Shown here piece by piece: positions 36,052 to 48,608 of a stretch of 64,000 nucleotides of DNA. Source of the DNA: Gemmatales bacterium (GTDB lineage Bacteria; Planctomycetota; Planctomycetia; Gemmatales; HRBIN36); NCBI GenBank assembly GCA_041640595.1, contig JBEPZY010000002.1, forward strand, positions 276,551 through 340,550, given 5' to 3'. Both the position numbers and the translations under genes were made by a program. The notes beneath the pieces were generated by a model, which was not told where the DNA came from, ran no database searches, and saw only the letters and a program-made list of their open reading frames with translations. The stretch's first letter is position 1; the number at the start of each line of letters is the position of its first letter.

Positions 36052-37507
36052 TCCCCGGCGAGCTGACGCCCGCCGCTCTCGGTCGAATGTGCGTTTGTGC
36101 ATCGTAAAAATTGTTGTTTCGCCGGCAGACATTCGCACTGCAACGCAAGAGCGGGGGGCGTAAGCCCCCCGTGGCGCCTATAAACGCGAATGCAACGGCG
36201 ATCCGCACACACACCGTCGGCGGTCTGCCGACGAATAGGGCTCGTGTCTGCCGACGCGCATTTGCCCACCCACGGCGGGCTGACGCCCGCCGCTCTTGGT
36301 CGCGTAGTCGGTCGTGGCTGAACGCTGTTCGATTCTCACTCCACGGTGATCGCCTGACCGAACCACGGCGGGCTGACGCCCGCCGCTCTTGGTCGAATGT
36401 GCGTTTGTGCATCGTAAAAATTGTTGTTTCGCCGGCAGACGTTCGCACTGCAACGCAAGAGCGGGGGGCGTGAGCCCCCCGTGGCGCCAATGCACGCGAT
36501 TGTAATCCGGAGCCGTATGACCCATATACGATTCTGGCGCTACGTTAGCCCCGTGGCGCCGATGCCCGCGACCGCAACGGCGATCCGCACACACACCATC
36601 GGCGGTCTGCCGACGAATAGGGCTCGTGTCTGCCGACGCGCATTTGCCCATCCCCGGCGGGCTGACGCCCGCCGCTCTTGGTTGGGTGTGCGACTCCGCA
36701 CTGCGAATAACGCATTTCGCAGCGAACGAACGTCGTGCAACCAGGAGCGGCTGGCGTAAGCCAGCAGTGGCGAACGAACGCGACCGCACCGGCGTTCGTG
36801 GGCATAGTGCCGGCAGTCTCCCGCGACTTTACGGCAAAGTTCCTGCAAGTACGCTTCCCTAACAGCCACGGCGGGCTGACGCCCGCCGCTCTTGGTCGAA
36901 TGTGCGTTTGTGCATCGCAAAAATCGTTGTTTCGCCGGCAGACGTTCGCACCGCAACGCAAGAGCGGGGGGCGAAGCCCCCCGTGGTTAACCTAGACGCG
37001 AACGCACCAGCCACCGGGACAGGCACCCTCGGCGGTCTGCCGACGAATAGGGCTCGTGTCTGCCGACGCGCATTTGCCCACCCACGGCGGGCTGACGCCC
37101 GCCGCTCTTGGTTGGGTGTGCGACTCGGCACTGCGAATAACGCATTTCACAGCGAACGAACGTCGTGCAACCAGGAGCGGCTGGCGTAAGCCAGCCGTGG
37201 CGAACGAACGCGACCGCACCGGCGTTCGTGGGCATAGTGCCGGCAGTCTCCCGCGACTTTACGGCAAAGTTCCTGCAAGTACGCTTCCCTAACAGCCACG
37301 GCGGGCTGACGCCCGCCGCTCTTGGTCGTGTAGTCGGTCGTCGGTGAACGCTGTTCGATTCTCACTCCACGGTGATCGCCTCACCGAACCACGGCGGGCT
37401 GACGCCCGCCGCTCTTGGTTGGGTGTGCGACTCCGCACTGCGAATCACGCGTTTCGCAGCGAACGAGCGTCGTGCAACCAGGAGCGGCTGGCGTAAGCCA
37501 GCCGTGG
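36052..37507. repeat. REP/BIME-like array 7 (~14 units)
   Basis: Same units; ~290-bp block repeated at ~430-bp offset (36600/37030). Confidence 0.9.
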
Positions 37508-39245: not shown

Positions 39246-39361
39246 CGCTGCCAGAGTGTGCCCGCCTGCCGACCCCGGCCCGGCTTGGCCATACAATGAT
39301 GCACGTGCACCAGACCTGGCGCGACCTTTCCAGCCAGGCACACAGCCAGGGAGGAGAGGGA

Positions 39362-41422
39362 ATGCACGACAGGCGAATAGCCTTGCGGCCAATCGTGATC
39401 TGGGCGGTTGGGCTGAGTGTGTTAGCTGCCTGGAGTCTTCGCCCCAGCTGGCCGGATTCTTTTCTTCTGGGTCAGGTCGGAGGAAAACCGCCGGCCGCCA
39501 GCCGACCTCGCATACCGGCTCCGGAACTCGAAGGCGGTGTGGATTGGCTCAACACTTCGGGGCCTATCCGTTTGCGCGACCTCCGCGGCAAAATCGTCCT
39601 GCTCGATTTCTGGACTTACTGCTGCATCAACTGCATGCATGTTCTGCCCGACCTGGCCCGGCTGGAGAAAAAATACGCCAACCAGCTTGTCGTCATCGGT
39701 GTGCACTCGGCCAAGTTCGACGCGGAGAAGGATTCCAAAAATATCCGCGAAGCGATTTTGCGCTATGGCATCGAACACCCCGTGGTCAACGACGCCCACC
39801 GCCGCATCTGGAACGCTTACCGGGTCATCGCCTGGCCGACTTTCGTTCTCATTGACCCCGAAGGATACATCGTTGGACGGGCTTCCGGAGAAGGGCTGGG
39901 GGAAGCGCTGGACGCGGTCATCGCCCAGCTCATCGAGGAACACCGCAAACGCAACACCCTCCGCGAACAACCGCTGCGATTCGACCTGGAAAAGTTCCGC
40001 CAGCGCGAACGAACGCCGCTTTATTTTCCCGGCAAAGTGCTGGCAGACGCCGCGACTCGCCGATTGTTTATCGCCGACAGCTCCCATCACCGCATCGTCA
40101 TCGCCGACTGGGATGGGAAAGTGCAGGCGGTCGCCGGAACGGGAGAACCAGGCTGGCGGGATGGGCCTTTTGCTCAGGCTCAGTTCAACGATCCCCAGGG
40201 CATGGCACTGGATGGCGGAAAGCTGTACGTGGCCGACCGCAAAAACCATCTCATCCGTGTGCTCGATCTCGCCAAACAGCAGGTGGATACCCTGGCGGGT
40301 ACCGGAAACCAGAGCCACGACCGTCGCGCTGCCGGCAAACCGCGGGAAGTCGGTCTGAACAGTCCCTGGGACCTGTTGCTGCTGGGGCAGTCACTCTACA
40401 TCGCCATGGCCGGGCATCACCAGGTCTGGAAGCTCGATCTGCAGCAGGACTACCTGGCCGCGTATGCTGGCAGTGGTCTGGAGGAAATCTACGACGGCAC
40501 GCTTGCCACGAGTGCGTTTGCTCAGCCGAGCGGATTGGCGAGCGATGGTCAATGGCTTTACGTGGCCGATAGCGAAACTTCCAGCATTCGCGCTGTCTCG
40601 CTCGATGCCAATCGCGGCGTGGTACGCACCATCGTAGGGCAGGGCTTATTCGAATTTGGCGACCGGGATGGTCAGGGCAAGGCGGTTCGCTTGCAACATC
40701 CGCTCGGTATCGCCTACCGCGATGGTCAGCTTTACATCGCCGACACCTACAACAACAAAATCAAAATCCTCGACCCGGTCAAACGCACCTGCCGAACCTT
40801 TCTCGGCGACGGTCGGCCCGGTCTGAGCGATGATCCGCCTCGCTTCGACGAACCCGGCGGCATTTCGATTGCCGGGGATTTCCTTTTCGTGGCCGATACC
40901 AATAACCACGCCATCCGCGTCGTGGACCTCAAAACCAACCGGGTGCGAACCTTGACCCTGCAAGGGTTGGAACCGCCGCCACCGCCAGCGAGTCCGAAAC
41001 GGCCAATCTTTCCCGAACCGCTCGTAGTACGCCAGCCGCGACAGGAACTGCCCACGACAGGGGCCATTTCCGTGCAGGGTCAATTCTGGATACCTGCCGG
41101 CCAGAAAATCACCACGGAATCCCGGCTCCCCTGTCTGGTCGAGGCTCTGCGCAATAACGAAACGGTGTGGGAAGAACAACCGGCTTTGCAAACCGACCGC
41201 GACGCAAATCGTTTCACGCTCACCCTCCCGGCCGAGAAAATCGCTCAGGCGGATACTTTGCGGATCACGGTCGGCTACTTCACCTGTCCGGTAAAAAGTA
41301 CCGGTGTATGTCTGATACACGCCATCCGCTGGGAAATTCCCGTCCAGGCAAAACCGAATGCTCAGCAACGCAGCCTCACGCTCGACCCGCCTTCACCACC
41401 CGCTGAGCAGAAATCTCCCTAG
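39362..41422 (+). CDS. Exported thioredoxin-like + NHL-repeat protein (NHLRC2/SOQ1-like architecture)
   Basis: N-terminal hydrophobic segment; DFWTYCCINC and GVHSAKF; multiple NHL repeats (LFIADS, LYVADR, LYIADTYN). Confidence 0.9.
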   Translation: MHDRRIALRPIVIWAVGLSVLAAWSLRPSWPDSFLLGQVGGKPPAASRPRIPAPELEGGVDWLNTSGPIRLRDLRGKIVLLDFWTYCCINCMHVLPDLARLEKKYANQLVVIGVHSAKFDAEKDSKNIREAILRYGIEHPVVNDAHRRIWNAYRVIAWPTFVLIDPEGYIVGRASGEGLGEALDAVIAQLIEEHRKRNTLREQPLRFDLEKFRQRERTPLYFPGKVLADAATRRLFIADSSHHRIVIADWDGKVQAVAGTGEPGWRDGPFAQAQFNDPQGMALDGGKLYVADRKNHLIRVLDLAKQQVDTLAGTGNQSHDRRAAGKPREVGLNSPWDLLLLGQSLYIAMAGHHQVWKLDLQQDYLAAYAGSGLEEIYDGTLATSAFAQPSGLASDGQWLYVADSETSSIRAVSLDANRGVVRTIVGQGLFEFGDRDGQGKAVRLQHPLGIAYRDGQLYIADTYNNKIKILDPVKRTCRTFLGDGRPGLSDDPPRFDEPGGISIAGDFLFVADTNNHAIRVVDLKTNRVRTLTLQGLEPPPPPASPKRPIFPEPLVVRQPRQELPTTGAISVQGQFWIPAGQKITTESRLPCLVEALRNNETVWEEQPALQTDRDANRFTLTLPAEKIAQADTLRITVGYFTCPVKSTGVCLIHAIRWEIPVQAKPNAQQRSLTLDPPSPPAEQKSP

Positions 41423-41433
41423 CCGCAATTACC

Positions 41434-43794
41434 ATGTCCGACTCGGTGCCTTCCTGCCTCTGGCATAGCCGTCGTACATCGCGCAGGCCTCTGATATGCT
41501 CGCTATTGAGCAGCTCCGGCAGGCCCGCGCGGGTGTGGCATGGCCGTCATGGACCGTGCAGGGCTTTGATGCCTGCTGGTCGGCAATCGGATCGCGCAGA
41601 GGCTGGCGACGGTGTTCTGCGCAAACCGGTCAAGTTCGGGCTGGTGATAATGTTACCCGTCTGGCTGGCCTGGTGGGTTGGCGCGAGCAGGGCACAAGAG
41701 CCGATGGACGAGGTGGCCGAGTTTTTCCGCGAACCGCAAGCCGTTACCGTCGCCCCACCACTCAAAGGAGCATTTGCCCAGGCGGTCGAAGAATTGCGCG
41801 TCAGCGTTTTTCCCGATCGTCCGCGTCGGGGCGAAACGGTGCGTCTGGAAGTGACCATCCGTCTGCGACCGAACTGGATGACGTATCCGCTGCGGCAGGA
41901 AGACGCGGAACTGGCCAGTGCCGTCAATTACTTCGAGTTGCCAGACACCAAAGTGCTGGTACCGCTGGACGATTGGCAGACGCCAACGCCCAAGTCCGTT
42001 CAGGAGGGCCGCTATCGCAAGCTGTACTACACCGACGCGGTGACGTTCACCCGCAGGCTGGTGGTGCGGCCCGAGACCGAACCGGGTCGCTACGCTTTCC
42101 CGGTGCATCTTCGTGTGCTTGTATGCGTCAAACAGGGGGAACAGGAACGCTGCTTGCCGCCGGAAAAGTTTGCCGTCGAGGTGCCGTTGTTCATTGTCCC
42201 GACCAGGGTCGAGGTGTCGCCGGAAATTCGCAGCATTCTGGAAAAGGCGAGTGCTTCACCGGTCGGCAGCCAGCAACCGAGCAGCGGTGGGACAGGTGCG
42301 GACCAGTTGGGCGTGAGTTCGACCGACCCGAGCACATCCCGGGAGAAGTTGTTGCAGCGGGGATTGCTGGCGTTCATCCTCAGCGGCATGTTCTGGGGAC
42401 TGGTTTCGCTGGCGACTCCGTGTGTTTTTCCGATGATTCCCATCACCGTAAGTTTCTTCCTGAAACAGTCCGAGAAAGAGCATCACCGCCCCGTGTTTTT
42501 CGCCCTGGTCTATAGCGGAACGATCGTGCTGGTGCTGACGCTGGGGGCGTTGTTGCTACTGGGATTTTTCCAGGCGGCGATTCAGCACTGGTTGACCAAT
42601 TTCCTCATCGGGGCGTTGTTTGTTTATTTCGCGCTGAGCCTGCTGGGCTGGTATGAGATTCAGTTGCCGGCAAGTCTGGCCCGGTTCACGTCCGCGCGGG
42701 AGGCCAAAGGAGGCGTGGTTGGCGTGGTGTTTATGGCCCTGACGTTTACCATCATCAGTTTCGCCTGCGTGGCGCCCTTCCTGGGCGGATTTGCTGGTCT
42801 GGCGCCCAGCCTGGGCAACATCAGCGCCATGATCCGCCAGGGAGAAATCGGGCAATTGCTGTGGGTATTGCTGGTTCTGCTGGCCGGGGGCCTGGCCTTT
42901 TCGGTGACCTTCGCCGCTCCGTTTTTCCTGCTGGCCCTTTTCCCTGCCTGGCTGAAAGCCTTACCGAAAAGCGGCAGCTGGATGAACACGATCAAGGTGG
43001 TGATGGGCTTCCTGGAACTGGCAGCCGCTCTCAAGTTTCTTCGGGCTGCCGAGAAACTGTGGTTGGGCGATGCCGTGTTGCTCACGTTTGATTTCGTGCT
43101 GGGCAGTTACGTGGCCATCGCTGCGGCTTGCGGATTGTACCTGCTCGGATTGTTCCGCCTGCCGCACGACGATCCGGAAGCTGCGCCGATCGGCGTGCCC
43201 CGGTTGCTGTTCGGTCTGGCGTTTCTGACGCTGGCGGCGTATTTGCTGCCAGGCCTTTACCAGACGCCGGTCGCCAACGGTGAACAAAACACATCGCTTC
43301 GCGTGCGTCCCAAAGGAGCCGTTTATGCCTGGCTCGAATCGTTCCTTTTGCCGGACACGTCCGGGGAGCATGGCCTGGGCAGCATTCATCGGGGTCTGGA
43401 GCTGGCCCTGAAACGCAAGCAGCGTATCTTCCTCAACTTCACCGGCGACACCTGAACGAACTGCAAAATCAACGAGAACAGTGTGTTCTCGCTGCCGGAA
43501 GTCCGTCGGGCTTTGAATCAGTATGTGCAGGTGGCCCTGTACACGGATGTGGTGCCGCCTGCCCTGCAACCTTCGACTCCGCCGGAGTGGAACCGCGAAT
43601 TTCAGTGGAACACTTTCGGCGACGCTCAGCTACCGCTCTATGTCATCCTCGAGCCGGTCAACCCGCAGCAGGCGAAAATCGTCGCCATTTACAACGAAGG
43701 CAAAATCAACAACGTGGCGGGTTTCGTGCATTTCCTGCAGACCGGCCTGCAAGCCCCCGCCGACCGCCTCATCACCATCCCACCACCTCCGTAG
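41434..43794 (+). CDS. dsbD: DsbD-like thiol:disulfide interchange protein, probable selenoprotein (in-frame TGA 43453-43455)
   Basis: N-domain Cys pair (VCVK...RCLPP); transmembrane domain with TPCVFPMIP and FACVAP; thioredoxin domain FLNFTGDT-TGA-TNCKINE that continues in frame to TAG at 43794. The true start may be downstream (41569 or 41650). Confidence 0.82.
43473..43491 (+). promoter_or_regulatory. Putative bacterial SECIS hairpin
   Basis: Perfect 8-bp stem CGAGAACA/TGTTCTCG with loop GTG; 25 nt separate the TGA from the loop. Confidence 0.7.
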
Positions 43795-43816
43795 GCTGCT
43801 CACGTCCGAGGTGCTA

Positions 43817-44800
43817 ATGAGGAAGGCGATCCCGGATCGGTTTGAAAGCCTGCTCAGCGTTGCGGCTGAAGACCTTGCCATAACACTGGCCGGCCACCCA
43901 CCACTTCAATGGTTGGACTTCCTGCTCAATCCCCGCCGATTGCGCGGCAGCGACTTCTTGATGCGCTGGTCGCAAGGACGCTGGGCCGAGGACAGGATCG
44001 TCGAAGCTATCAATTCCACTGGCCGGTACTATGCCATCCCCTACGGCCCGAGCAGCGTCGCGCCATCTCAAGAGCGTGCTGAAGAGTTTGAGCGCTACTT
44101 CGACCGCCTGCAAAAAGCCGGCCTGGGCAAGCTGAAGCGTCCTGACTTGCTTGTTTTTCGTATTGGCGACAAGAGTGAAGTGAACAGCATCTTGTCGGCA
44201 CGAGGCGGGCTGCAGGAATTACCCTTTATTCAGGAAGCCGACCTAAAGAGGTTGTTGCAGCTGGCGATAGTCGCTATTGAGTGTGAGACCAGTCTATGGA
44301 TTGCCGAGAAAATGCCCGATTACAATGCCGAACTACAGCCGCAACGCTGGCTGGGCAATAAACCGGGCCTAAGGAAAGGCGCAGTAGCGCCTACCATCAT
44401 TCTCAAAGACGAAGACAGAAGACCCTTGAAACGCTGGCAGCGTTCTCATTCTGTGGCCGTTCACCTCTGGCATTTGTTTTACGACCTGGGGTTCGGTATT
44501 GCGCTGGAGGAAGGCGAAAAGCTGATCCGAGGGCAGAGGATACGGCCGCAATCGCAGGTCTATCAGGCACCAGGTGGCCCGACAACGACCAAGAGGATAT
44601 TCAAGATTTATCACCATTACAGTTACCCGATCGGTCGCATTACCAAGCGACCAAAGATGACAGCAGCGTCGATTACCAATAAAAACGGCCATATCCTTCC
44701 CTATGTCCGCTTTGAGGGTGGCCGACTAGATTTGTCCGCAGAAGCCCTAGCTGTGCTGGACCGAGCTGCCAAGCTGCGGCATGGTGAAGTGACGATGTAA
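43817..44800 (+). CDS. Type II restriction endonuclease, AccI-like family
   Basis: SDFLMRWSQGRWAE, KRPDLL and AIECETSLW (PD-(D/E)xK-like); adjacent to an adenine methyltransferase. The start at ATG 43817 follows GAGG. Confidence 0.75.
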   Translation: MRKAIPDRFESLLSVAAEDLAITLAGHPPLQWLDFLLNPRRLRGSDFLMRWSQGRWAEDRIVEAINSTGRYYAIPYGPSSVAPSQERAEEFERYFDRLQKAGLGKLKRPDLLVFRIGDKSEVNSILSARGGLQELPFIQEADLKRLLQLAIVAIECETSLWIAEKMPDYNAELQPQRWLGNKPGLRKGAVAPTIILKDEDRRPLKRWQRSHSVAVHLWHLFYDLGFGIALEEGEKLIRGQRIRPQSQVYQAPGGPTTTKRIFKIYHHYSYPIGRITKRPKMTAASITNKNGHILPYVRFEGGRLDLSAEALAVLDRAAKLRHGEVTM

Positions 44801-44822
44801 GCTGCACCGATGATTACCTCAG

Positions 44823-46373
44823 ATGCCGAGTTATGCTATGGGTAAGCAACAGCGGCTAGCCAGCAGGCTGGAACGCGAACTCCTGCGAGCCAAAGGGCAG
44901 TTCTGGACCCCGGACTGGGTGGCAGAAGTGATGGTAGCCTATGTGCTGGGCAAAGGAGCGCGGCAACTTTTTGACCCGGCTGTTGGTACTGGTGCTTTTT
45001 TCCGCGCTGCGAAGAAACTGGCGAGTTGCTCGAGGCGGGTTCCTCAATTTGTTGGCTGCGAGATTGACCCCACGGTGTTGAGGGCAGCAGTGGAAAATGG
45101 CTTCAGCCACGCGGAGTTATCTCAGGTGCATGTGCGGGATTTCGTGCTCGATCCGCCTGCTGGACCTTTCGAGGCCATCGTGGCCAATCCGCCCTACCTG
45201 CGCCATCACCGACTCAGCGCCGAGGTAAAAGCGAAACTGCGCTCGTTCGCGTACCAAATTCTGGGTCAGCCTATTGACGGCCGGGCCGGCCTTCACGTCT
45301 ATTTCCTGTTGCGTGCCTTGCAATTGCTGGCTCGTGGGGGTCGGCTGGCCTTTATCATGCCCGCGGACACTTGCGAAGGTGTCTTTGCCCCGGTGCTTTG
45401 GTCATGGATAACCCGACATTACCGATTGGATGCAGTAATTACTTTCGACCCAGCGGCCACACCCTTTCCCGAAGTGGACACCAATCCGCTCATCTTCTTC
45501 ATAGAACACACTGAACCACGCGACCAGTTCTACTGGGTACGGTGTGAGCAAGGAGGAGGCAAGGAACTCTGCCAGTGGGTCATGACGGGTTTTCAATGTC
45601 CGCCCAGCGGAGCGCTTTGCGTGTACCAGCGGACCCTGGACGAAGCCTTGCGAGTCGGTTTATCGCGGCCGGCTCTCGGCGACCAAGACGGAGGCTGTCG
45701 TCTGGGTGATTTGGCAATAGTCGTTCGTGGTATTGCCACCGGGGCTAACGATTTTTTCTTTCTCACGCATGCCCAGGTTAAGCAACTGGACATTCCCCGA
45801 GAATTCCTCGTCCGGGCCATTGGCCGAACGCGCGATGTGCCTGGTGACCGCGTCGATTCACAGTTACTTCACCAACTGGAACGATTAGGGAGGCCGACTT
45901 GGCTGTTTTGCCCTGATGGCCGACCGTTGCAGGAATTCCCGGATAGTGTCCGCCGCTATCTCCTGGAGGGCGTGGCTCAGGGTTTACCTCGCCGTCCATT
46001 GCTAGCCACACGCCAACCCTGGTACAAAATGGAAAGGCGACACCCACCGCCATTTCTCTTTGCGTACCTGGGTCGGCGGAACGCTCGATTCATTCGCAAT
46101 CTGGCCAGAGTTGTGCCGCTGACCGGGTTCCTGTGTGTCTATCCCAGGCATGCGGCTCCGGAATTCCTGGAACGACTGTGGACTGTTTTGAATCATCCAG
46201 AGACACTTCGTAATCTCCAATTGGTGGGCAAGAGTTACGGTGCCGGCTGTATCAAGGTCGAGCCGAGGGCACTGGAACAACTACCCTTATCTGAAGATGT
46301 TGTCCGCCAGGCGAAATTGGCTGAATTTGTTCCGAAAAGCAGGGCGGGGGTTCAATTAGTGATAGGGTGGTAA
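44823..46373 (+). CDS. N6-adenine DNA methyltransferase (gamma class, Eco57I/TaqI-like)
   Basis: GQFWTP, FDPAVGTGAF (motif I), ANPPY (motif IV) and RGIATGANDFF. Confidence 0.92.
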   Translation: MPSYAMGKQQRLASRLERELLRAKGQFWTPDWVAEVMVAYVLGKGARQLFDPAVGTGAFFRAAKKLASCSRRVPQFVGCEIDPTVLRAAVENGFSHAELSQVHVRDFVLDPPAGPFEAIVANPPYLRHHRLSAEVKAKLRSFAYQILGQPIDGRAGLHVYFLLRALQLLARGGRLAFIMPADTCEGVFAPVLWSWITRHYRLDAVITFDPAATPFPEVDTNPLIFFIEHTEPRDQFYWVRCEQGGGKELCQWVMTGFQCPPSGALCVYQRTLDEALRVGLSRPALGDQDGGCRLGDLAIVVRGIATGANDFFFLTHAQVKQLDIPREFLVRAIGRTRDVPGDRVDSQLLHQLERLGRPTWLFCPDGRPLQEFPDSVRRYLLEGVAQGLPRRPLLATRQPWYKMERRHPPPFLFAYLGRRNARFIRNLARVVPLTGFLCVYPRHAAPEFLERLWTVLNHPETLRNLQLVGKSYGAGCIKVEPRALEQLPLSEDVVRQAKLAEFVPKSRAGVQLVIGW

Positions 46374-47734: not shown

Positions 47735-48608
47735 CCCACGGCGGGCTGACGCCCGCCGCTCTTGGTTGCGGGTTCGCTAACCGCTGGACAATGTTTGATT
47801 CTGGCGGTACGACGCTCGGTACACTGAACCACGGCGGGCTGACGCCCGCCGCTCTTTTTCGGCGTGCGTTTGTACATCGTACAAATCGTTTTTTCACCGG
47901 CGGACGTTCGCGCCACGACACAAGAGCGGGGGGCGTAAGCCCCCCGTGGTATGTTCTCGGAATGCGAACCCGATTACGGCAATCTGGCGCATTGCCGTTG
48001 CAGAGGCGGTTTGCAACCCCACGGCGGGCTGACACCTGCCGCTCCTGGTCGCGGATTCGCTAACCGCCAGACAATGTTCGAGTTTCGCGGCAGAGCGTCC
48101 GGTTCACCGATCCACGGCGGGCTGACGCCCGCCGCTCTTTTCGGCGTGCGTTTGTACATCGCACAAATCGTTTTTTCACCGGCGGACGTCCGCATCGCAA
48201 TACAAGAGCGGGGGGCGTAAGCCCCCCGTGGTATGTTCTCGGAATGCGAACCCGATTACGGCAATCCAACGCATTGCCGTTGCAGACGCGGTTTGCAACC
48301 CCACGGCGGGCTGACGTTCGCCGCTCTTGTTTCCGCGCGAGACGAGTGTCCCCGAACGTGTGCGGTATCGGTGTTGCAGGTGCGTTTCCCGAACACCACG
48401 GCGGGCTGACGCCCGTCGCTCTTGTTTCCGCGCGAGACGAGTGTACCCGAACGTGTGCGGTATCCGTGTTGCAGGTGCGTTTCCGGAACACCACGGCGGG
48501 CTGCCGTTCGCCGCTCCTGATAATGACGATCGTTGCTCACGACGAAATCGTTTCCCGTTGCAAGTGCGATACTCACATCCACGGCGGGTTGACGTTCGCG
48601 GCTGCTGG
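47735..48608. repeat. REP/BIME-like array 8 (~10 units)
   Basis: Same units; ~282-bp tandem duplication, decaying copies at the right end. Confidence 0.9.

Follow-up and report, generated by a model that had tools for sequence, protein, structure and literature searches.

A TGA codon at the active site of a membrane thiol reductase

Does an in-frame TGA that falls on the active site of a membrane thiol reductase end the protein, or does it encode selenocysteine (Sec, U)? This question is raised by a dsbD-like gene in the 64,000-nucleotide stretch of Gemmatales bacterium DNA analysed here, which we refer to as the window. The open reading frame (ORF) finder closes the frame 41434-43455 at TGA 43453-43455, after 673 aa. 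With TGA read as U, the frame stays open to the TAG at 43792-43794, and the gene (41434..43794, +) encodes 786 aa from its first ATG. The start is uncertain; gene calls of the Joint Genome Institute (JGI) begin at ATG 41569, and residues are numbered here from 41434. The read-through product includes IFLNFTGDT-U-TNCKINENSVF...YVQVALYTD...LPLYVIL, in which the predicted Sec codon (43453..43455, +) takes the place of the first Cys of a CxxC motif, and Cys677 (43462..43464, +) is the second residue of the UxxC pair.

We conclude that this is very probably a single dsbD-type gene, in which the in-frame UGA would encode Sec and the product would be a full-length membrane reductase with a Sec-x-x-Cys pair in its gamma domain. 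A stop codon at the position of the relatives' active-site Cys, together with a conserved hairpin, makes Sec very likely. The same reading had been proposed in a first-pass annotation of the window, and the ORF end and the open frame to 43794 that it described were both reproduced. Its statement that automated annotation would split the gene was borne out by the public protein collection, which holds products terminating at FTGDT and a separate 103-aa downstream product. It had also raised the possibility that reads carry TGC or TGT at this position. Contigs of three independent runs (X3, X4, and X12) span the codon and show neither triplet, with no other letter listed there; in run X16 the codon is not covered. 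Contigs from RNA libraries cover the gene as well, and are of a kind that cannot prove transcription. The contigs carrying the best matches come mostly from hot-spring and mat metagenomes, and the names of the nearest homologues point to Gemmatales, Planctomycetota, as the organism's order and phylum.

Distribution of the TGA form

A match to the protein was found in 60 of the 61 order-level genomes. At the 61 aligned loci the codon is TGC or TGT in 54 and TGA in seven (G000-G003, G010, G012, and G048, where G000 is the genome of the window), confirming that the TGA sits at the first Cys of the thioredoxin CxxC. Conservation of the TGA in relatives, another point of the first-pass annotation, was thus found at these seven loci, all of which keep the hairpin in the same register. 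TGA is also carried by L238, L239, and three same-genus genomes, while the "1 TGA" flagged for G008 proved to be its ordinary stop. No intact selA was found in G005, G009, G018, G049, and G028, and all five use Cys. In G028, selA lies in pieces with several stops (G028:C10:34165-34859), selD is intact, and dsbD uses Cys.

A motif scan of genome contigs in which the TGA was fixed returned at least 120 stretches, at least 119 of them homologous to the window protein; L103 was rejected as a chance pattern match. Of the matches listed, 104 carry a Planctomycetota title, and the membrane motif PC-x-[FY]-P is present at 72 of the 80 long loci. The scan pattern demands D/N, N, C, and E residues, so other forms are missed and those residues are not countable as conserved. 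When selA was searched for in 90 of the at least 119 TGA genomes, it matched in 88 (40/40 and 48/50); the two genomes without a match both have selB and tRNA-Sec, and one has selD. In a sample of 301 phylum genomes, which overlaps the genomes of the TGA-fixed scan, the motif occurs in 76. Here, selA was found in 53 of 53 TGA genomes versus 14 of 23 Cys genomes, and all nine motif carriers without selA use TGC or TGT.

The domain 3' of the TGA is under purifying selection, with a ratio of nonsynonymous to synonymous substitution (dN/dS) of 0.09-0.11 in five of five comparisons. Decay of this domain, which the first-pass annotation had named as a possible finding, was not seen.

The hairpin downstream of the TGA

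The codon is followed by CGAGAACA-GTG-TGTTCTCG (43473..43491, +), a predicted selenocysteine insertion sequence (SECIS) with an 8-bp stem and a GUG loop that begins 25 nt after the UGA, its G at 43481. The coordinates, the spacing, and the G as first loop base agree with the first-pass annotation, and the folding energy is -9.7 to -10 kcal/mol. The part of a 2026 selenoprotein catalogue that sets out a bacterial SECIS model (PMC13188914) gives a loop of 3-9 nt, a stem of 4-16 bp, a spacing of 16-37 nt, a G in the first two loop positions, and a minimum free energy <= -7.5 kcal/mol. With a 3-nt GUG loop, 8 bp, 25 nt, and -9.7 kcal/mol, the hairpin lies within these ranges.

By itself, the hairpin is modest to weak evidence; the strength of the case lies in the comparative data. 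When the peptide was recoded with synonymous codons, 2.6% of 20,000 trials gave a comparable stem. The seven hairpin codons (AAC GAG AAC AGT GTG TTC TCG) are identical across the genus, unlike the synonymous sites within it, which differ at about 0.7. In 12 clade sequences the stem is 93.8% paired, two pairs having changed on both sides, and one of 500 covariation shuffles equalled this pairing. When folding of nt 13-39 was compared with synonymous shuffles over 197 distinct sites, the mean z was -1.83 in TGA forms (n=127) and -0.50 in Cys forms (n=70).

A second hairpin, GCGGTCGC (CCGGC-GGTC-GCCGG), is present about 40-55 nt after the TGA (L088-L207), past the 16-37 nt spacing rule; it occurs in 60 of the 127 TGA forms and one of the 70 Cys forms. 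Its GGUC loop resembles the SECIS of E. coli fdhF. This hairpin is absent from the window gene, and the genus does not conserve a weak stem at 43498-43514.

Selenocysteine machinery and other TGA genes of the genome

The first-pass annotation had proposed looking for selA, selB, selC, and selD. All four are present, with scores above curated cut-offs, so the genome does not lack Sec machinery. selA and selB are adjacent on contig C2, selD carries its own TGA, and tRNA-Sec is the sole tRNA with a TCA anticodon among the 51 tRNAs found.

A TGA occupies the catalytic Cys position in selD and in three further genes, whose products are a peroxiredoxin (C1:211390), a protein resembling TlpA (C3:188085), and a member of the ArsC family (C3:649976). 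In each, a stem of 7-9 bp capped by a GUG or GUU loop lies 23-38 nt downstream. The BCP/PrxQ-like peroxiredoxin (L266, G000:C1:211138-211704, +) has TSG-U at the peroxidatic Cys, a hydrophobic N-terminus, and a GUU-loop hairpin 38 nt downstream; its codon is TGA also in G001, G003, and six f2 genomes, and Cys in G002. The TlpA-like protein (L267, G000:C3:187750-188250, -) has a signal-like N-terminus and the motif WADY-U-ASC. Its hairpin, GCATCTG-GTN-CAGATGC, is kept in G001-G004 and G048; the TlpA codon pattern caught 9 of 20 loci, so the TGA was placed in part of the TlpA matches. The ArsC-family protein (L268, G000:C3:649662-650012, -), with HRPG-U-KTC, scores above the NF041106 cut-off and has a GUU-loop hairpin 23 nt downstream.

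A further TGA, giving U-DG-C, was observed at G000:C1:911405 (-). It separates open frames of 962 and 287 codons, and 20 nt after it comes a hairpin with a 7-bp stem and a GGC loop. A loose genome scan for UxxC or CxxU plus a hairpin returned 402 of 4,587, mostly noise. A search for a Sec formate dehydrogenase matched two molybdopterin genes, neither of which has a stop within the matched region.

That Sec has co-evolved strictly in DsbD, TlpA, and peroxiredoxin is ruled out by mixed genomes. G002 has a Sec DsbD with a Cys peroxiredoxin, six f2 genomes have a Sec peroxiredoxin with a Cys DsbD, and G004 has a Sec TlpA with a Cys DsbD.

Architecture of the read-through protein

The protein has the three-domain layout of the DsbD superfamily, with a redox pair in each domain. 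A signal peptide (41614..41694, +) is predicted, by eye and hydropathy, from a basic start, a hydrophobic core, and an ASRA/QE end; the N-terminus is of low predicted local distance difference test score (pLDDT). It is followed by an immunoglobulin (Ig)-like alpha domain (41827..42168, +) with Cys231 (42124-42126) and Cys240 (42151-42153). The beta transmembrane domain (42331..43260, +) carries Cys330 (42421-42423, TPCVFP) and Cys445 (42766-42768, FACVAP), and the gamma thioredoxin domain (43387..43752, +) spans the TGA with U674-T-N-C677. Pfam DsbD_N matches the alpha domain with E 0.006 (17 bits versus a cut-off of 25), DsbD_TM the beta domain with E 3e-20, and Thioredoxin_7 the gamma domain, across the TGA, with E 1.5e-6, the latter also matching PDB 3f9u (E 1.9e-8).

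In an alignment of the window protein with 82 of the 120 homologues among the matches listed, all six redox positions (C231/C240, C330/C445, U674/C677) are invariant, and the site of U674 is Cys in each of the other 82 proteins. An AlphaFold2 model with Cys at 674 (pLDDT 85.6; predicted template modelling score 0.69) shows three domains; in fold it matches B. fragilis 3f9u and E. coli DsbD-alpha best, followed closely by ScsB-alpha. The alpha domain is a single Ig domain, with fold matches to 1jpe (E 6.7e-4) and ScsB 6c29 (E 1.6e-3). Seven transmembrane segments lie above the hydropathy threshold, and the model contains one more long helix that could be an eighth. Profile alignment, which is weak (E about 0.01), places U674 at E. 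coli Cys461, N668 at Asp455, and E681 at Glu468; Asn668 (43435..43437, +) is assigned to the Asp455 position by alignment to 1uc7/2fwe. No other DsbD_TM (DsbD/CcdA-type) gene was found in the 95%-complete genome.

Several homologues depart from this layout. In L092 (601-3195, +), L098, and L138, the order is permuted, with the second half of the membrane domain, the gamma domain with U, and then the first half with PCTYP, which puts the membrane Cys pair after the Sec codon. About 100 extra residues follow the gamma domain in L107, L109, L111, L129, L130, L136, L162, and L167 (188-197 codons post-TGA), and L107, L141, and L152 apparently have two alpha domains. A TGA-type gamma domain in L095 (2401-2442, -) has a stop 38 codons upstream, reflecting a frameshift, a split gene, or an assembly error, and G059:C233 (L029, L067) has two gamma-domain matches about 3 kb apart, both with Cys.

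Evolution of the Sec and Cys forms

In a FastTree phylogeny of 159 rows with the site masked, which left out duplicates and rows with fewer than 300 upstream residues, the window falls in a 16-row Gemmatales clade with a support of 99. This clade comprises 13 Sec and three Cys rows, and the Cys rows (G006, G013, and G014) are nested beside Sec rows. It has a one-hairpin SECIS and does not group with the deep-branching Sec clade. An approximately unbiased (AU) test on 42 chosen rows rejected the grouping of the Gemmatales clade with the other Sec rows included (p 2.5e-10). The test used LG+G4 with no mixture and an unrooted tree, the tested group was named after the first tree, and two Armatimonadota rows and L165, L144, L091, and L222 were left out. 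Sec was likely gained separately in the Gemmatales clade, and the post hoc grouping, non-mixture model, omitted rows, and unrooted tree make separate gains likely at most; the alternative reading is one gain with several losses.

The two forms also meet at short distance. L240, with TGA, and L241, with TGT, come from a sister species that shares about 81% identity with the window; of 3,024 bases, this is the only one at which they differ, and both keep the hairpin. The full-length Cys protein (P0002) is found on seven contigs from four sources, possibly with samples in common. Asn is present six residues before the site in 113 of 130 Sec forms versus 3 of 71 Cys forms, an association that is a lead only, given the shortage of independent pairs. 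At this position, Asp is retained in several Gemmatales Sec forms.

Alternative explanations

A number of observations weigh against the Sec reading or against parts of its support. In dinucleotide shuffles of 48 nt, the hairpin reached z = -0.87, with 35 of 200 folding equally well. Hairpins of the type found at the other TGA genes follow 60 of 109,487 TGA triplets in all frames, a background count that is partly circular because the triloop filter was drawn up after the candidates were known. The inner A-U pair of the stem is broken in 4 of the 12 clade sequences, where the loop has five bases; moreover, these 12 sequences are related to one another, and the structure tested for covariation was derived from the window sequence. 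In the folding comparison, z < -1.5 was reached by 51% of TGA forms only. The dN/dS of the membrane part, 0.03-0.05, is lower than that of the part after the TGA. The Fisher p of 6e-6 for selA in TGA versus Cys genomes overstates the association since the genomes are related, and selA is common in the phylum anyway (224/301). For the Asn/Sec link, the independent-pairs test gave three pairs and p 1. Finally, while the use of Sec by the gamma domain, as claimed in the first-pass annotation, is supported by the comparative evidence, selenium in the protein is something that we infer.

The TGA could be a true stop. The gamma tail would then be a relic, and the alpha-beta protein would act in the manner of CcdA, together with a separate thioredoxin that is exported. 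TGA is the commonest stop in the genome (525 of 1,214 long ORFs), another locus encodes an exported TlpA-like protein, databases annotate the truncated form, and CcdA-type proteins without gamma exist, as described in passages of PMC3322552. Against this, the tail is open, conserved, and under purifying selection, and the stop falls on the catalytic Cys codon in more than 100 lineages, tied to selA and to a conserved hairpin, which leaves termination extremely improbable. Reading of the UGA as Cys or Trp by a suppressor or non-canonical tRNA would fit the Cys of the homologues and the one-base TGT allele of the sister species. UGA-to-Cys recoding is known in a few bacteria. Yet the only TCA-anticodon tRNA among the 51 is tRNA-Sec, the hairpin agrees with the bacterial SECIS model and resembles the selD hairpin of the same genome, and the nine selA-less motif carriers of the phylum sample all use TGC or TGT; we give this reading very little credence. 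Alternatively, Sec may be inserted for the sake of a selenium-gated switch, in which partial read-through would yield a truncated alpha-beta form that has a role of its own beside the full-length form. Sec insertion competes with termination, and with a single DsbD_TM gene found, a fallback under selenium shortage would be useful; however, the Cys reversions G006, G013, and G014 yield the full-length form only, so the short form is dispensable there, and we consider such a switch unlikely. A sequencing or assembly error might be suspected in a metagenome assembly whose sister species has a TGT form, but this is already refuted by the agreeing contigs of three further runs and by the TGA in L238, L239, and three same-genus genomes.

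Comparison with known systems

Like E. coli DsbD (NF001419; 1jpe, 1uc7, 2fwe, 1vrs), the window protein has the alpha-beta-gamma order, a Cys pair per domain (with U in gamma), an Ig-like alpha fold, a thioredoxin gamma domain, and a Glu681 that aligns with Glu468. Unlike it, the window protein has Sec for Cys461, Asn for Asp455, and FTGxxUxNC for YADWCVAC. Its NF001419 score is 101 bits versus a cut-off of 330, and six other TGA homologues score 88-171 bits; by this cut-off and by Asp455, the protein falls outside the E. coli-type DsbD subfamily. This score and the nearest match of the gamma domain refine the identification as DsbD in the first-pass annotation. The gamma domain is nearest, in sequence and fold, to the B. 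fragilis DsbD-like C-terminal domain 3f9u, which shares the motif DFTGxxCxNC and differs in having Cys, and Asp six residues before it, where the window protein has Sec and Asn. A Bacteroides/Leptospira DsbD branch is noted in passages of Cho et al. 2012 (PMC3322552).

TsoB (NF045694), a rhodanese/DsbD fusion-like selenoprotein, shares the DsbD-type membrane domain. According to its listed description, it has a rhodanese domain and two Sec, arranged as UxxxxU, in contrast to the UxxC of the gamma domain here. The TsoB model matches with 109 of 805 bits in the membrane part only, with no rhodanese match. The "thiol:disulfide interchange protein" selenoprotein (PF13098, WP_011366075.1) has a UxxC, a thioredoxin fold, and a similar name, but is about 190 residues long and has no membrane or alpha domain. 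The Caulobacter ScsB-TlpA-PprX envelope peroxide pathway, as outlined in part of PMC3322552, likewise joins a transporter of the DsbD family to a TlpA and a peroxiredoxin that are both exported, and all three proteins are predicted here. Unlike in Caulobacter, each has a TGA in place of its catalytic Cys codon; their genes are unlinked, and the pathway is a putative one here.

A gamma-Sec DsbD is absent from Table 1 (119 families) of the 2026 selenoprotein catalogue (PMC13188914), and NCBIfam (June 2026) has no model that reaches its cut-off for the window protein or the six TGA homologues. No DsbD entry was found in the main text or supplements of deep-Sep, the main text of BSepDB and part of its genome list, or the main text of the Haft 2022 preprint, nor in main-text passages of Zhang 2006 and Peng 2016, whose supplements could hold entries. 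Literature searches for selenoproteins with DsbD or Planctomycetes gave no such report in the parts covered, although RefSeq, BSepDB members, Haft and Tolstoy 2025, and Kryukov and Gladyshev 2004 could hold some, and a search for exported bacterial selenoproteins gave no result. The protein is very probably a selenoprotein, and would be a variant of two known kinds, DsbD and the UxxC selenoproteins. Sec in a thioredoxin fold is an expected theme. New elements are the Gemmatales Sec clade, whose SECIS has a single hairpin; the pair of TGA and TGT alleles in a sister species; and the Asn that stands in for the Asp damping E. coli Cys461.

Neighbouring genes

A thioredoxin-NHL gene (39296..41422, +), with WTYCCINC and a hydrophobic N-terminus, ends 11 nt upstream of the first dsbD ATG. 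It lies upstream of dsbD in 18 of 20 loci fetched, and this conserved neighbour is a candidate substrate. Directly 3' of dsbD are genes for an AccI-like restriction endonuclease and an N6 methyltransferase (window 43817-46373), found in none of the 20 relatives' loci. In three runs, the sequence departs from the window at 43799 and continues with another one that is nearly identical among them, which together with this absence makes the restriction cassette look strain-variable. Elsewhere, a dispersed palindromic repeat with the core CGGCGGGC-loop-GCCCGCCG (window 36273-37392, 47739-48115, and others) is matched 24 times in the window and 278 times genome-wide.

Proposed mechanism

If the UGA encodes Sec, the known bacterial mechanism would have SelB bind the GUG-loop hairpin 25 nt downstream and deliver Sec-tRNA. 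The alpha and gamma domains would be exported, as the signal peptide recognised by eye suggests. In E. coli, electrons pass from thioredoxin through beta, gamma, and alpha to substrates, as described in part of PMC3322552. By analogy, they may pass here from cytoplasmic thioredoxin to Cys330/Cys445, to U674/Cys677, to Cys231/Cys240, and on to envelope substrates. Candidate substrates are the adjacent thioredoxin-NHL protein and the exported TlpA-like protein, itself with UxxC; both are guesses from neighbourhood and analogy, which tells against the scheme at this end. Without selenium, the product would end before the active site, and the relay would thus be broken.

A selenolate would turn the gamma domain into a fast, always-on nucleophile. 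In E. coli, according to passages of PMC2631958, Asp455 and Glu468 raise the pKa of Cys461 to 10.5, and this high pKa shields it from DsbA; Cys461 is unreactive until docked on alpha, and D455N drops its pKa to 9.3. The pKa of a selenol is given as 5.2 in part of PMC13188914. A selenol together with Asn at the 455 position would invert the E. coli gamma design.

The hydrophobic N-termini of the peroxiredoxin and the TlpA-like protein suggest a selenium version of the Caulobacter ScsB-TlpA-PprX chain. Against this stands the uncoupled Sec status of DsbD, TlpA, and peroxiredoxin across relatives. A wider scenario, which we put forward tentatively and consider rather doubtful as a whole, is that the DsbD of Planctomycetota gained Sec at the attacking site at least twice, each time with its own SECIS. 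In the hot-spring genus, it would head an all-Sec envelope chain (DsbD-gamma with Sec, alpha, exported TlpA with Sec, exported peroxiredoxin with Sec), with the braking Asp dropped and a living Sec/Cys allele pair in a sister species.

Implications

The TGA form, found in at least 119 genomes, points to a large family of mis-annotated selenoproteins with a central place in the redox control of the envelope. For this genus, the NCBI and JGI entries examined end at the codon. A Sec in the gamma domain would run against the accepted DsbD design, in which, according to the relevant passages of PMC2631958, the gamma Cys is unreactive, with a pKa of 10.5, and escapes oxidation by DsbA. A selenol at this site, mostly accompanied by Asn in place of Asp455, raises the question of how the domain stays reduced. 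With the TGA/TGT pair, the nested reversions, and Engelhardtia mirabilis Pla133 (L152) as a carrier in culture, the advantage of Sec versus Cys, a long-standing question, becomes testable in one scaffold. With its position, family size, separate clade, and natural Sec/Cys pair, this DsbD would be a good test system.

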